A stretch of 64,000 nucleotides of DNA from contig JAJYIU010000021.1 of assembly GCA_021789895.1 (NCBI GenBank), forward strand, positions 30 through 64,029. The letters are read 5' to 3'. Source of the stretch: Acidobacteriota bacterium (GTDB taxonomy: Bacteria > Acidobacteriota > Terriglobia > Terriglobales > SCQP01). This document shows, piece after piece, positions 23,457-25,572 of this stretch (position 1 is its first letter; each line of letters starts with the position of its first letter). Both the position numbers and the translations under genes were made by a program. The notes under the pieces were generated by a model. The model saw only the letters and a program-made list of their open reading frames with translations. It was not told where the DNA came from and searched no databases.

Positions 23457-24749
23457 ATGCCCCTCAAAGCATCCGTATCCCGCGCCGAATCCAATGGCCG
23501 TTTGGGCGTGCTGTTGGCCGGCATGGGCGCAATCTCGACCACACTCATCGCCGGCATCGAAGCGATCAAACAAGGCGTGGGCCGGCCGCTGGGGTCGCTG
23601 AGCCAACTGGCGCTGGCGCCGGATATCGATCCGCGCCATCCGGTGGCGCTGAGCGATTATCTGCGCCTGGACCGCATCGAGAACCTGGTCTTCAGCGGCT
23701 GGGACATCAATCCCGGCACGGCTTACGACGCCGCCCGCCGCGCGGCGGTGATCGAGCCGTCGCTGCTGGAACAGCTCCGTCCCCAGCTCGAAGCCATCGA
23801 GCCGATGCCGGGCATCTACGATCCGCGCTATTTGCGGCGCGGGGAAGGCCGGCGGCTGAAACCGGAAACCAACCAGTACGAGCAGGCCGAAGCGCTGCGC
23901 CAGGACATTCGCGCCTTTCAGCAGCGGCATCAACTGCGGCAGGTGGTGGTGCTGTGGTGCGGCTCGACCGAGGTGTTTTCGACCCCCGGCCCGGCGCACC
24001 AGGGACAGCGCATCTTCGAAGCGGCGATGAAGGCCAACGATCCTTCCATCGCGCCCAGCATGCTGTATGCCTGGGCGGCGTTGCAGGAAGGCTGCGCCTT
24101 TGTCAATGCCACGCCCACGCTGACGGTGGATCTGCCGGTGATGATCGAGCTTTCGGAAGCGCACCGCGCGCCCATCTGCGGCAAGGATTTGAAAACCGGC
24201 CAGACCTGGCTGAAGACCGTGCTCGCGCCCGGCATCCGCCAGCGCATGCTCGGCGTCGCCGGCTGGTTCAGCATGAACATACTGGGCAACCAGGACGGCG
24301 CCGTGCTCGACGACCCGGCCGCATTTCGCAGCAAGGAAGAATCCAAGCTCTCGGCGCTGAACCACATTTTGCAGCCCGAACTCTATCCCGAGCTTTACGG
24401 CCATCTGTCGCATCAGGTCAAGATCAACTACTATCCCCCGCGCGGCGACAACAAGGAAAGCTGGGACACGATCGACCTGCTCGGCTGGCTGGGCTATCCG
24501 ATGCAGATCAAGGTGAATTTCCTCTGCCGCGACAGCATTCTGGCGGCGCCGCTGCTGCTCGATCTGGCGCTGTTTTCGGCGGCCGCGCAGCGCGCCGGCC
24601 GCGGTGGGGTGCAGGAATGGCTGGCTTTCTTCTTCAAGAGCCCGCAAGTGCGCGCCGGCCGCCCGGAACACGACCTTTCGGTGCAGTACCAGCATTTGCA
24701 GGCCGCCTGGAAAGAACTGGCGGAAGCCGCCGTCGGCGTGACCGCCTGA
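23457..24749 (+). CDS. ino1: myo-Inositol-1-phosphate (inositol-3-phosphate) synthase
   Basis: FSGWDIN, FVNATPT, SMNILGNQDG and RSKEESKLSAL correspond to the conserved MIPS blocks (GWDI, NGSPQNT, SYNHLGNNDG, SKxxSK). GGAGAG lies 9 nt upstream of the ATG at 23457. The longer track ORF start (23349) adds a non-homologous leader. Confidence 0.9.
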   Translation: MPLKASVSRAESNGRLGVLLAGMGAISTTLIAGIEAIKQGVGRPLGSLSQLALAPDIDPRHPVALSDYLRLDRIENLVFSGWDINPGTAYDAARRAAVIEPSLLEQLRPQLEAIEPMPGIYDPRYLRRGEGRRLKPETNQYEQAEALRQDIRAFQQRHQLRQVVVLWCGSTEVFSTPGPAHQGQRIFEAAMKANDPSIAPSMLYAWAALQEGCAFVNATPTLTVDLPVMIELSEAHRAPICGKDLKTGQTWLKTVLAPGIRQRMLGVAGWFSMNILGNQDGAVLDDPAAFRSKEESKLSALNHILQPELYPELYGHLSHQVKINYYPPRGDNKESWDTIDLLGWLGYPMQIKVNFLCRDSILAAPLLLDLALFSAAAQRAGRGGVQEWLAFFFKSPQVRAGRPEHDLSVQYQHLQAAWKELAEAAVGVTA

Positions 24750-24762
24750 TCGCCGGGGCAGG

Positions 24763-25572
24763 ATGGCGGCGGCAACGCCGCCCCGTGGAGCAACGAGTTT
24801 GACTCAGAAACCCCTCGCTGAACGTGTCGCCCTGGTCACCGGAGCGGCGCGCGGCATCGGCCGCGCGATCGCCCGCCGGCTGGCCGCCGACGGCGCCAGC
24901 GTGCTGATCAATTACGCCACCAGCCATGAGGCCGCCCAGGCCCTGGCGGAGGAGCTGCGCGGGCTGGGCGTGAAGGCTGAAGCCGTGGCCGCCGACGCCG
25001 CTTCCCCGGCCGGGGTGGCGGCGATGCTCAAGGCGATCGAGAGCGGCTTCGGCAACCGGCTCGACATTTACATCAACAATGCGATTGACGTGGCCGCATC
25101 CGGTCCGGCGCTGAAGATGCGCGCCGCGGGCTGGGAACATACCGTGGATACGAACTCCACGGCATTTCTCACGCTCGCCCAGCGCGCGGCCAAGCTGATG
25201 CAAGGGCGCGCGGGCCGCATCGTCACCGTATCTTCGCTCGGATCGCTCTACTACATTCCCAATTACGCCCCGATCGGCGTCGCCAAGGCCGCCGCCGAAG
25301 CGTTGACCCGTTATCTTGCGGTCGAGCTGGGGCCGCTGGGAATCAACGTGAACGCGGTCTCGGCCGGGCCGGTCGAGACCGATGCCTTGCATCTTTATCC
25401 CAATTACGAGCAGATGAAGGCAACCGCCGCCGCGATCTCGCCCGCGCGCCGCATGGGCATGCCGGAGGATATTGCCGCGGTGGTGGCGTTTCTCTGCTCC
25501 GATGCCGCCGCCTGGATCACCGGCCAGACCGTGATCGCCGACGGCGGGCTGTCTTTATTGAGCGTGCGCTAA
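24763..25572 (+). CDS. FabL-type enoyl-ACP reductase (SDR with Tyr-x6-Lys)
   Basis: [16 protein letters not shown] (NAD(P) binding). [33 protein letters not shown] closely resembles the B. subtilis FabL active-site region as I recall it, and carries Y-x6-K rather than the classical SDR YxxxK. Confidence 0.75.
   Translation: [269 protein letters not shown]

Follow-up and report, generated by a model that had tools for sequence, protein, structure and literature searches.

Why should a gene for myo-inositol phosphate synthase (MIPS) stand directly in front of a set of fatty acid elongation genes? The question is raised by a 64,000-nt stretch of the genome of an Acidobacteriota bacterium of the order Terriglobales (GenBank assembly GCA_021789895.1, contig JAJYIU010000021.1, positions 30 to 64,029; hereafter the window), for which an earlier note, made from the sequence alone, described MIPS as the first cistron of a fatty acid synthase (FAS) operon and left the fate of its inositol phosphate unexplained. 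Our comparison across related genomes indicates that the coupling is real, dedicated and conserved, and that the partner is a private set of FAS- or polyketide synthase (PKS)-like enzymes and not the housekeeping FAS. The explanation that we prefer, with a probability of roughly 0.55, is that this gene set makes an N-acyl aminocyclitol (inosamine) lipid, in which a private fatty chain would be joined to an amino-inositol ring.

The window has a G+C content of 61-74%, and a mine-drainage metagenome, probably the one from which the assembly was made, is the sole sequencing run in which the stretch is contained. Twelve plus-strand genes between 21842 and 35320 are supported by the frame-specific profile of G+C at third codon positions and by the contexts of their start codons (Table 1). 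The MIPS open reading frame (ORF) runs from an ATG at 23457 to a TGA at 24747-24749, with GGAGAG 8-13 nt before the ATG. Upstream on the same strand, a gene for an adenylate-forming enzyme related to PaaK (ligase-1) stops at 23239 and leaves a spacer of 217 nt; downstream, 13 nt separate the TGA from the ATG (24763) of a short-chain dehydrogenase/reductase (SDR) of the FabL type. The Shine-Dalgarno sequence, spacer and gap given in the earlier note are exact.

The MIPS protein matches Pfam PF07994 (262.3 bits, cut-off 25) and PF01658 (110.9 bits, cut-off 27) over its full length, and its closest solved structure is an inositol-3-phosphate synthase (PDB 7nwr, E 4e-130). In an alignment to 7nwr, the eukaryotic 9m53 and 1vko, the core motifs DxKTGQT, NILGNxDG, SKEESK, GDNKE and CxDSxLAAP are all intact, including the Lys- and Asp-bearing motifs that we take to hold the catalytic residues of the family. 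The genome that we examined (3.75 Mb, 79 contigs, 95.5% complete) contains a second MIPS gene on contig C75, 57% identical to the window copy and neighboured by genes for an M28 peptidase, an acetate kinase and a glucosamine-6-phosphate isomerase-family protein. Database homologs of the window MIPS fall into two tiers: about 40 proteins with 69-88% identity, all from Terriglobales metagenome-assembled genomes (MAGs), and the rest at 60% or below. In a maximum-likelihood tree, 37 single-copy or housekeeping MIPS form one clade (SH-aLRT 98), which includes the C75 copy as well as sequences from Gemmatimonadota, KSB1 and Steroidobacteraceae. The window MIPS falls outside this clade, in a separate long-stemmed clade A (SH-aLRT 100), and the three cluster-linked MIPS groups (the window-type group and those of two related gene layouts described below) each form a clade of their own (SH-aLRT 100), all of them outside the housekeeping clade. 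Judged by this placement, the window MIPS is a dedicated paralog and not the housekeeping copy.

The paralogs also share distinct sequence changes. Of the 169 columns with at least 97% invariance among 102 housekeeping MIPS, only 104 are kept across all three cluster-linked clades. All 21 cluster-linked MIPS share A219T and N221T/S in motif 3 (the equivalent of the eukaryotic N-G-S-P-Q-N-T), and an R-L-G-R loop at about residues 55-58 is missing from every one of them. Since the two signature positions (219 and 221) are occupied by Ser and Gln in eukaryotic MIPS, the changes need not alter the reaction. The canonical activity, conversion of glucose-6-phosphate (Glc-6-P) to inositol-3-phosphate (Ins-3-P) with bound NAD, stays the default prediction, with the motif-3 signature and the lost loop as a small doubt.

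The contigs with the closest MIPS homologs (72-86% identical) carry the same 12 genes in the same order between different flanks. We refer to this order as type A: ligase-1, MIPS, FabL, acyl carrier protein (ACP), dehydratase (DH), a pair of a ketosynthase (KS) and a chain length factor (CLF)-like protein, ketoreductase (KR), a second CLF/KS pair, ligase-2, and an aminotransferase of the DegT family. A scan of species-representative genomes with the ligase alignment gave 54 loci, and every long Terriglobales locus among them has the full or partial colinear order. A FabL-like SDR and an ACP follow cluster-type MIPS in 29 of the 29 loci for which downstream sequence is available, and the MIPS-FabL adjacency is far beyond chance. 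Cluster-type MIPS is found in 26 of 28 genomes (seven genera) of the Terriglobales family to which the window belongs, the two misses being 88% and 54% complete, and a housekeeping copy is present as well in nearly all of the 26. None was found in 400 other Acidobacteriota, a set that includes 33 genomes of the neighbouring family of the same order and one unpublished genome (accounting for one of the negatives); the best match there is 59% identical and of the housekeeping type. The phylogeny and neighbourhood survey that the earlier note had called for thus returned closest homologs other than housekeeping MIPS with random neighbours.

Homologs of ligase-1 at the next level of similarity (about 50% identity) led to two further layouts, referred to as types B and C. 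Type B occurs in Vicinamibacteria, in unclassified Acidobacteriota and in one MAG labelled Betaproteobacteria. One of its strands carries MIPS-FabL-ACP-DH-KS-KS-KR-KS-KS followed by a B12-binding radical S-adenosylmethionine (SAM) enzyme, with the gene of a metallo-beta-lactamase (MBL)-fold hydrolase on the opposite strand between ACP and DH; a divergent operon consists of ligase, DegT, a zinc alcohol dehydrogenase (ADH) and an inositol monophosphatase (IMPase). The ADH passes the NCBIfam equivalog model for IolM, scyllo-inosose 3-dehydrogenase, with 485 bits (cut-off 450). Type C, hosted by subdivision-22 MAGs and Polarisedimenticolia, consists of patatin and ligase genes, then on the other strand an IolG-like dehydrogenase of the GFO/IDH/MocA family and DegT, and then MIPS (4 of 4 loci); no ACP or KS is present in any of these four loci. 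The DegT orthologs are 53-57% identical to the window protein in type B and 41-43% in type C. Every layout thus pairs a cluster-type MIPS, a DegT aminotransferase and a PaaK-like ligase with a cyclitol dehydrogenase, to which type B adds an IMPase. The genes of a predicted inosamine route of the hygromycin A or rhizopine type are completely clustered in type B and clustered except for the IMPase in type C, and the window clusters MIPS and DegT alone. Because type C lacks a carrier protein, its orthologous DegT and ligase would most simply act on a cyclitol; without ACP and KS, the gene context offers them no other keto substrate.

As a side observation on the type B locus labelled Betaproteobacteria (GCA_050257855.1; L092/L044), its ADH and IMPase are 60-82% and its MBL hydrolase 63-70% identical to those of Acidobacteriota MAGs, and its MIPS nests among MIPS of Vicinamibacteria and other Acidobacteriota. 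A distant member of the ligase family lies in a different, lipid-like cluster (L046, from a Joint Genome Institute soil metagenome, the protein being named Blastocatellia in NCBI), with genes for two KS, a FabA-like dehydratase, a radical SAM protein, a polysaccharide deacetylase, an ABC transporter, a glycosyltransferase resembling monogalactosyldiacylglycerol synthase, a haloacid dehalogenase-type phosphatase, a class III aminotransferase, the ligase and an MBL hydrolase, and no MIPS in view.

Does MIPS open the operon? The spacer between ligase-1 and MIPS contains four TTAA boxes (at 23314, 23324, 23335 and 23346, a spacing of 10-11 bp) and, 11-12 nt past the last box and about 90 nt before the MIPS ATG, a hexamer with the pattern A-x-A-A-T (here GAAAAT, 23362-23367). 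This element is the sole alignable block in the ligase-1-MIPS spacers (78-666 nt) of 18 type A loci, and a position weight matrix of it (45 nt, about 45 bits) has a single hit in the 3.7-Mb genome, before MIPS. It also precedes MIPS where ligase-1 is inverted (L053) or lies on another contig of the same MAG (L054, L095), and in further loci anchored on ligase-2. As the element stays with MIPS when ligase-1 has moved, it belongs to MIPS and not to ligase-1; it is absent from type B and type C loci. The hexamer resembles a -10 box, and phased direct repeats that abut a -10 without a -35 are the geometry of promoters activated by OmpR/PhoB-type regulators. A consensus scan of 23240-23456, which is a weak tool for this phylum, found no sigma-70-type promoter and no intrinsic terminator, and a search of 20900-36500 against Rfam, with E values up to 0.1 admitted, had no hit.

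Upstream, a gene for a tetratricopeptide repeat (TPR) protein (homologs 40-82% identical) stands divergently to ligase-1 in nearly all type A loci, including the one in which ligase-1 is detached from MIPS, and our reading is that ligase-1 and the TPR gene form a separate divergent pair. At the other end, KS4, ligase-2 and DegT abut or overlap in relatives (ligase-2 with KS4), and in type B the FAS-like operon begins with MIPS. MIPS therefore very probably opens a transcription unit that runs through the FAS-like genes to DegT, in line with the first-cistron position proposed earlier, for which the element tied to MIPS and the type B gene order are the grounds. No RNA run was found to contain the stretch, and two metatranscriptome runs of the same mine-drainage study gave only 20-40-nt matches of 90-99% likeness to conserved KS and KR motifs, evidently from other organisms.

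The genes between MIPS and ligase-2 are predicted to encode a complete private type II elongation set. The SDR is closest among solved structures to Bacillus subtilis FabL (3oic, E 7e-63, vs. 3e-41 for the best FabG), and a stretch of 33 residues aligns to the corresponding one of FabL, with NYAPIGVAK facing NYTTVGVSK of 3oic, a Tyr-x6-Lys spacing in place of the Tyr-x3-Lys usual for an SDR; the FabL-type enoyl-ACP reductase with a Y-x6-K motif recognised in the earlier note is borne out by this match, with the equivalog cut-off missed (see below). The FabL-like SDR tracks the FAS genes, occurring in types A and B but not in type C, and for this reason an enoyl reductase is favoured over a cyclitol dehydrogenase. 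The ACP homologs of relatives are 151-162 aa long. The dehydratase scores 108.6 bits against the NCBIfam FabZ model (cut-off 113), its orthologs carrying Pfam FabA and ApeI-like matches, and the FabG-type KR passes TIGR01830 (302 bits, cut-off 297.75). Among the four KS proteins, KS1 and KS4 keep the Cys-His-His residues at their active-site columns, in KS2 the catalytic Cys column holds Gly and the second His is replaced by Asn, and in KS3 the Cys column holds Thr and the His motifs are missing. By these columns, the four proteins are two KS/CLF-type pairs, and together with ACP, FabG, dehydratase and FabL they make up the private set. The pairing of a KS with an inactive CLF partner, as in aryl-polyene-type systems, is thus present; the polyene chain made without enoyl reduction and the aromatic starter of such systems are not indicated here, and family scans of the window proteins found no starter-unit genes.

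The operon closes with the DegT gene, from a family that includes inosose aminotransferases, so that MIPS here does have a partner of the aminocyclitol type, one of the associations that the earlier note lists for known systems. Its best PDB matches are Fic25 (8gyh, E 2e-75, full length), glutamine:scyllo-inositol transaminase (7b0d, E 2e-49) and 2-deoxy-scyllo-inosose aminotransferase (5w70, E 6e-48). Both ligases are PaaK relatives and, by their scores, not PaaK itself: against the PaaK equivalog TIGR02155 they reach 113 and 94 bits (cut-off 646). Ligase-1 scores below the cut-offs of the NCBIfam models for the DVU_1553-family ligase (162 bits), PaaK (119 bits) and FlxY (81 bits), and its closest PDB match is PaaK 4r1l (E 3e-31). 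The ligases also show weak matches to PaaK relatives that form esters or amides independently of CoA (BagE/FevW, AjiA1), and the ligase-1 alignment (A1) identified family-invariant residues. In the ligase tree, ligase-1 (clade A1) lies on the side of type C and ligase-2 (clade A2) on that of type B, a split with SH-aLRT 94, which is below the level at which clades of the tree were marked with a star, and the type B ligase, like ligase-2, precedes DegT. The two appear to be old paralogs, possibly with different acceptors.

The remaining steps of an inosamine route would be encoded elsewhere in the genome. As the earlier note had stated for the vicinity of MIPS, there is no IMPase or CDP-alcohol phosphatidyltransferase, and none was found on the whole contig of the window; a genome-wide search places one IMPase (contig C48) and four CDP-OH transferases (PF01066) on other contigs. 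The C48 IMPase is 46% identical to the IMPase of the type B cluster. A zinc ADH on contig C70 (13673-14824) passes the IolM equivalog with 464 bits (cut-off 450), and it belongs to a minus-strand operon (C70, 13653-19145) with an OmpR-type response regulator, a histidine kinase, an MBL hydrolase and a class I/II aminotransferase, next to a divergent TPR gene. This operon is kept in 9 of the 10 family loci examined, and its MBL hydrolase is the best match in the genome to the one inside the type B cluster (35% identical, E 8e-34). Because both its MBL hydrolase and its ADH have homologs inside the type B cluster, the C70 operon is probably a second locus of the pathway. The cut-off of the IolM model is passed by 25 of the 28 genomes of the family and by none in a set of 300 other Acidobacteriota; the three family genomes without it are 54% complete, 73% complete, and one in which the gene is split across contig ends. 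Thermotoga maritima is the sole control genome that also passes the cut-off. On contig C76 (87757-89379, minus strand), a 541-aa B12-binding radical SAM protein matches the one encoded in the type B cluster along its entire length, with 62-63% identity; it occurs in 27 of the 28 genomes of the family and in 0 of 300 Acidobacteriota outside it. The counts of these unlinked genes, taken from one family, are not independent events, and independent support comes from their position within the type B cluster. With an IMPase and a cyclitol dehydrogenase carried by the clusters of relatives and both encoded elsewhere in this genome, the fate of the inositol phosphate, which the earlier note could not account for, becomes explicable.

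A few observations on these unlinked genes may be added. The C76 radical SAM gene has unrelated neighbours (DinB, GltX and trehalose-phosphate genes) and gives weak family matches to methylases acting on lipids, hopanoids and phosphorus. A relaxed pattern of three TTAA boxes has four overlapping matches at three loci in the genome, against 0.27 matches expected; at one of these (C70, 19134-19159), three boxes with 11-bp spacing are followed by GACTAT about 100 nt before the likely start of the response regulator. The geometry of this site matches that of the MIPS element and the site is kept in 3 of 10 family loci, from two genera, which makes it a weak lead. A GFO/IDH/MocA gene in the window (10650-12125) was a candidate for the inositol dehydrogenase that the cluster lacks, and was discarded because relatives do not keep it next to the cluster and genes on other contigs match the IolG-like protein of type C better.

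In the pathway that we propose, MIPS would convert Glc-6-P to Ins-3-P, from which the IMPase (encoded at a distance here and within the cluster in type B) would release myo-inositol. A cyclitol dehydrogenase, here the IolM-type ADH of C70 and in the clusters of relatives an IolM-type or IolG-like enzyme, would then yield an inosose, which DegT would aminate to an inosamine. In parallel, the two KS/CLF pairs, FabG, dehydratase and FabL would assemble a saturated chain on the private ACP. The chain would probably be released by the MBL-fold hydrolase, and in type C the patatin would free an ordinary fatty acid. A PaaK-like ligase would adenylate the chain and form the amide bond to the inosamine, the B12-radical SAM enzyme (in trans here) would probably C-methylate the product, and the second ligase might either charge the starter unit or attach a second acyl chain. 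Retention of the system by almost all genomes of one family makes a structural envelope lipid seem more likely than a sporadic antibiotic. A wider picture, which we put forward tentatively and at less than even odds, is that of a new class of envelope lipid: an N-acyl aminocyclitol, possibly methyl-branched or doubly acylated, that would be a trait of one uncultured Terriglobales family, with other layouts in Vicinamibacteria, subdivision-22 and Polarisedimenticolia, and that would be expressed from a PhoB-box-like promoter possibly switched by the OmpR-type two-component system of C70.

Several points weigh against an N-acyl aminocyclitol lipid. Product and pathway are deduced from gene context and family membership, and the phyletic counts, coming from one family, represent about one evolutionary event and not 26. 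The SDR misses the cut-off of the NCBIfam FabL model NF005975 (280 vs. 328 bits), which is nonetheless its top-scoring model by 76 bits. Both ligases lie far below every curated cut-off. The characterised IolM oxidises scyllo-inosose and not myo-inositol, so that the first oxidation step in types A and B is not firmly assigned. The conserved genes beside the cluster do not include a transporter, a flippase or an acyltransferase. The type B locus labelled Betaproteobacteria may reflect a recent transfer, or a mislabelled or misbinned contig. Lastly, Fic25, the closest solved relative of DegT, acts on a carrier-tethered keto acid and not on a free cyclitol (PMC11726168).

This last point is the starting point of a different arrangement of the same genes, in which inositol or its phosphate would be linked to the chain as an ester or ether, DegT would aminate a keto group of the ACP-bound chain, and the ligases would load or transfer carboxylates on the ACP. 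The PaaK-like ligases of aryl polyene and flexirubin systems are thought to load starters, and the FlxY model gives 81-103 bits on the ligases here; the KS and DH proteins further show sub-threshold matches to the AmcF and AmcE models of cispentacin, in whose pathway an aminotransferase is combined with a type II PKS-like set. Fic25-type enzymes likewise aminate a substrate tethered to a carrier, in their case an amino-group carrier protein (PMC11726168). Against this stands type C, which keeps DegT, ligase, MIPS and the IolG-like dehydrogenase without any ACP or KS, and, in every layout, the pairing of DegT with a cyclitol dehydrogenase that would be useless if inositol were not oxidised; we therefore consider an amino-fatty acid product unlikely. 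A little less unlikely, and the strongest of the competitors, is that the chemistry is the same or similar and the product a diffusible metabolite, such as an aminocyclitol-polyketide antibiotic, a surfactant or a signal. KS/CLF pairs, an ApeI-like dehydratase and adenylating enzymes are typical of type II PKS-like clusters, the combination of MIPS and DegT is a hallmark of aminocyclitol antibiotics (PMC10949010), and a dedicated promoter element suggests conditional expression. Sporadic antibiotic clusters are, however, rarely present in 26 of 28 genomes and seven genera of a family; type A forms one well-supported clade in both the MIPS and the ligase trees, neither of which hints at transfer to or from the family; the full reductive loop of KR, DH and enoyl reductase predicts a saturated, lipid-like chain; and no resistance gene or exporter is conserved next to the cluster.

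Two other readings concern MIPS itself. It may be a paralog of changed chemistry that uses another sugar phosphate or releases an inosose phosphate, so that DegT would aminate the product directly without IMPase or first dehydrogenase. The 104 of 169 invariant columns kept, A219T and N221T/S, and the loss of the R-L-G-R loop would fit such a change, as would the fact that the fold supports other chemistry (PDB 6k96, a five-membered cyclitol phosphate synthase) and the action of characterised IolM on an inosose and not on inositol. We nevertheless judge it improbable in view of the intact Lys/Asp core motifs, of the eukaryotic MIPS with Ser and Gln at the signature positions, and of the IMPase of type B, which implies a phosphate-ester product. 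The adjacency could finally be meaningless, with a housekeeping MIPS for phosphatidylinositol (PI) or an osmolyte lying by accident beside a fatty acid operon, as the lack of an IMPase, dehydrogenase or phosphatidylinositol phosphate (PIP) synthase beside MIPS in the window might suggest; a separate housekeeping-type MIPS in the same genome, adjacency in 29 of 29 informative loci of two layouts, and a paralog clade outside the housekeeping clade leave this explanation almost no weight.

Among known systems, the proposed N-acyl inosamine pathway most resembles the aminocyclitol branch of hygromycin A biosynthesis in Streptomyces hygroscopicus (MIPS, IMPase, myo-inositol dehydrogenase and aminotransferase, followed by amide linkage to a carboxylic acid), with a proposed route from Glc-6-P over myo-inositol to an aminocyclitol and with a DegT and a dedicated MIPS; the logic of Glc-6-P, inositol phosphate, myo-inositol, inosose, inosamine and N-acylation is alike (PMC10949010). 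Unlike hygromycin A, the acyl partner here would be built by an FAS-like type II system that is private to the pathway and includes an enoyl reductase, and would not be a cinnamate-type acid, the coupling enzyme would be PaaK-like and the dehydrogenase an IolM-type ADH (IolG-like solely in type C), in this family the genes occupy several separate loci, the host belongs to the Acidobacteriota, and the system is family-wide and not strain-specific. With aryl polyene and flexirubin clusters, which comprise the KS-CLF pair ApeO/ApeC, the dehydratases ApeI and ApeP, the reductase ApeQ, the ACPs ApeE/F, the adenylating ApeH and the ligase FlxY, the window shares KS/CLF-type pairs, an ApeI-like dehydratase, a FabG-type KR, a private ACP and a PaaK-like ligase; it differs in having a FabL enoyl reductase (a saturated chain is expected), MIPS and DegT, and in having no aromatic-starter, LolA/MMPL-type export, glycosyltransferase or acyltransferase genes. 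The canonical inositol lipids of Actinobacteria and Bacteroidetes, made with MIPS, PIP synthase and PIP phosphatase, likewise start with a MIPS-family enzyme; the motifs are intact here and 7nwr is the closest structure. In contrast to these, none of the three layouts has a CDP-alcohol phosphatidyltransferase inside or close by, and the MIPS falls in a separate clade; no PIP or PI synthase adjoins MIPS here or in relatives, as expected from the view of the earlier note that this is not canonical PI synthesis. The ADH resembles the IolM of T. maritima inositol catabolism (IolG, IolM) in passing the IolM cut-off. In T. maritima the catabolic pathway includes hydrolase, epimerase and kinase genes, whereas the enzyme here is linked to a biosynthetic MIPS, an aminotransferase and a ligase. 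Aminotransferases of the Fic25/AziC7 type, from the ficellomycin and azinomycin pathways, include the closest solved relative of DegT (Fic25, over the full length) and act on a substrate tethered to an amino-group carrier protein (PMC11726168), a carrier that is not encoded here.

A full-text literature search turned up neither this cluster nor N-acyl inosamine lipids. All parts belong to known families, and their combination is undescribed in the papers found. Acidobacteriota rank with the most abundant bacteria of soils, and for a large part of their membrane chemistry the responsible genes have yet to be assigned; the host family comprises soil and mine-drainage acidobacteria. If the N-acyl inosamine reading holds, an aminocyclitol head group would be added to the bacterial lipid repertoire and might serve as a biomarker for these uncultured lineages. 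The comparison provides a testable gene set, consisting of the 12-gene operon, the IolM-type dehydrogenase, MBL hydrolase and B12-radical SAM enzyme in trans, and the single IMPase, as well as a MIPS subfamily signature, N-(A/G)-T-P-(T/S), with which the pathway may be found in metagenomes. It also defines a PaaK-like ligase family (GFETTGT loop) that is always associated with aminocyclitol genes, and a compact conserved promoter element.

Table 1. Genes and elements of the type A locus in the window (window coordinates).
Feature	Coordinates	Strand	Basis
172-aa TPR protein, divergent partner of ligase-1	21158..21676	-	Pfam TPR_2/TPR_1, NCBIfam TPR_END_plus
Ligase-1, PaaK/CapK-like adenylate-forming enzyme, GFETTGT loop	21842..23239	+	Pfam AMP-binding
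AT-rich promoter/operator-like element	23313..23367	+	conserved block, type A loci
Dedicated MIPS (inositol-3-phosphate synthase) paralog, 430 aa	23457..24749	+	Pfam, PDB, tree
FabL-type enoyl-ACP reductase, SDR with Y-x6-K	24763..25572	+	NCBIfam, PDB
170-aa ACP with C-terminal extension	25598..26110	+	Pfam PP-binding; NCBIfam ACP models, residues 26-83
FabZ/ApeI-like 3-hydroxyacyl-ACP dehydratase	26125..26649	+	NCBIfam FabZ, sub-cut-off
KS1, FabF-like ketosynthase, Cys-His-His	26643..27992	+	Pfam/NCBIfam, active-site columns
KS2, CLF-like partner	28006..29439, start uncertain (27973 or 28006)	+	active-site columns
FabG 3-oxoacyl-ACP reductase	29436..30221	+	TIGR01830
KS3-like shortened protein, CLF-like partner of KS4	30221..31246	+	active-site columns
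KS4, FabF-like ketosynthase, Cys-His-His	31243..32472	+	active-site columns
Ligase-2, ligase-1 paralog (46% identical)	32611..33960	+	family models, alignment, tree
DegT/DnrJ/EryC1-family pyridoxal phosphate-dependent aminotransferase	33995..35320, start uncertain (33974 or 33995)	+	Pfam, 268 bits

At the borders of the cluster, no gene is conserved downstream of DegT among type A loci, and the ORFs past DegT (35333-35992 and beyond), considered as possible members, were dismissed, as they have no homolog at that place in other type A loci. A GlmU-like gene with nucleoside triphosphate (NTP)-transferase and hexapeptide parts, present near the cluster in some relatives, was considered as an inositol-phosphate cytidylyltransferase and likewise set aside; it is absent here, adjoins seryl-tRNA synthetase and looks like a housekeeping gene. 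One type A lineage (L012/L013, 5370-8374) has a PadR regulator and a MacB-type ABC permease inserted between the TPR gene and ligase-1, which could be an exporter recruited to the cluster.

Further out, the GC skew of the window is negative over 1-38 kb and clearly positive over 38-64 kb, with a cumulative minimum near 37-38 kb; the switch (window about 36000-38000) could mark a replication origin or terminus, or a mere change in gene orientation. Upstream of the cluster, a minus-strand operon (16681-20975) encodes a TetR regulator, an enoyl-CoA hydratase, an aldehyde dehydrogenase and a PaaA/BoxB-like di-iron protein, and is adjoined by genes for a molybdenum enzyme of the xanthine dehydrogenase family (12126-16553). 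This block also lies beside the cluster in the closest relative (L009), and not in more distant ones.

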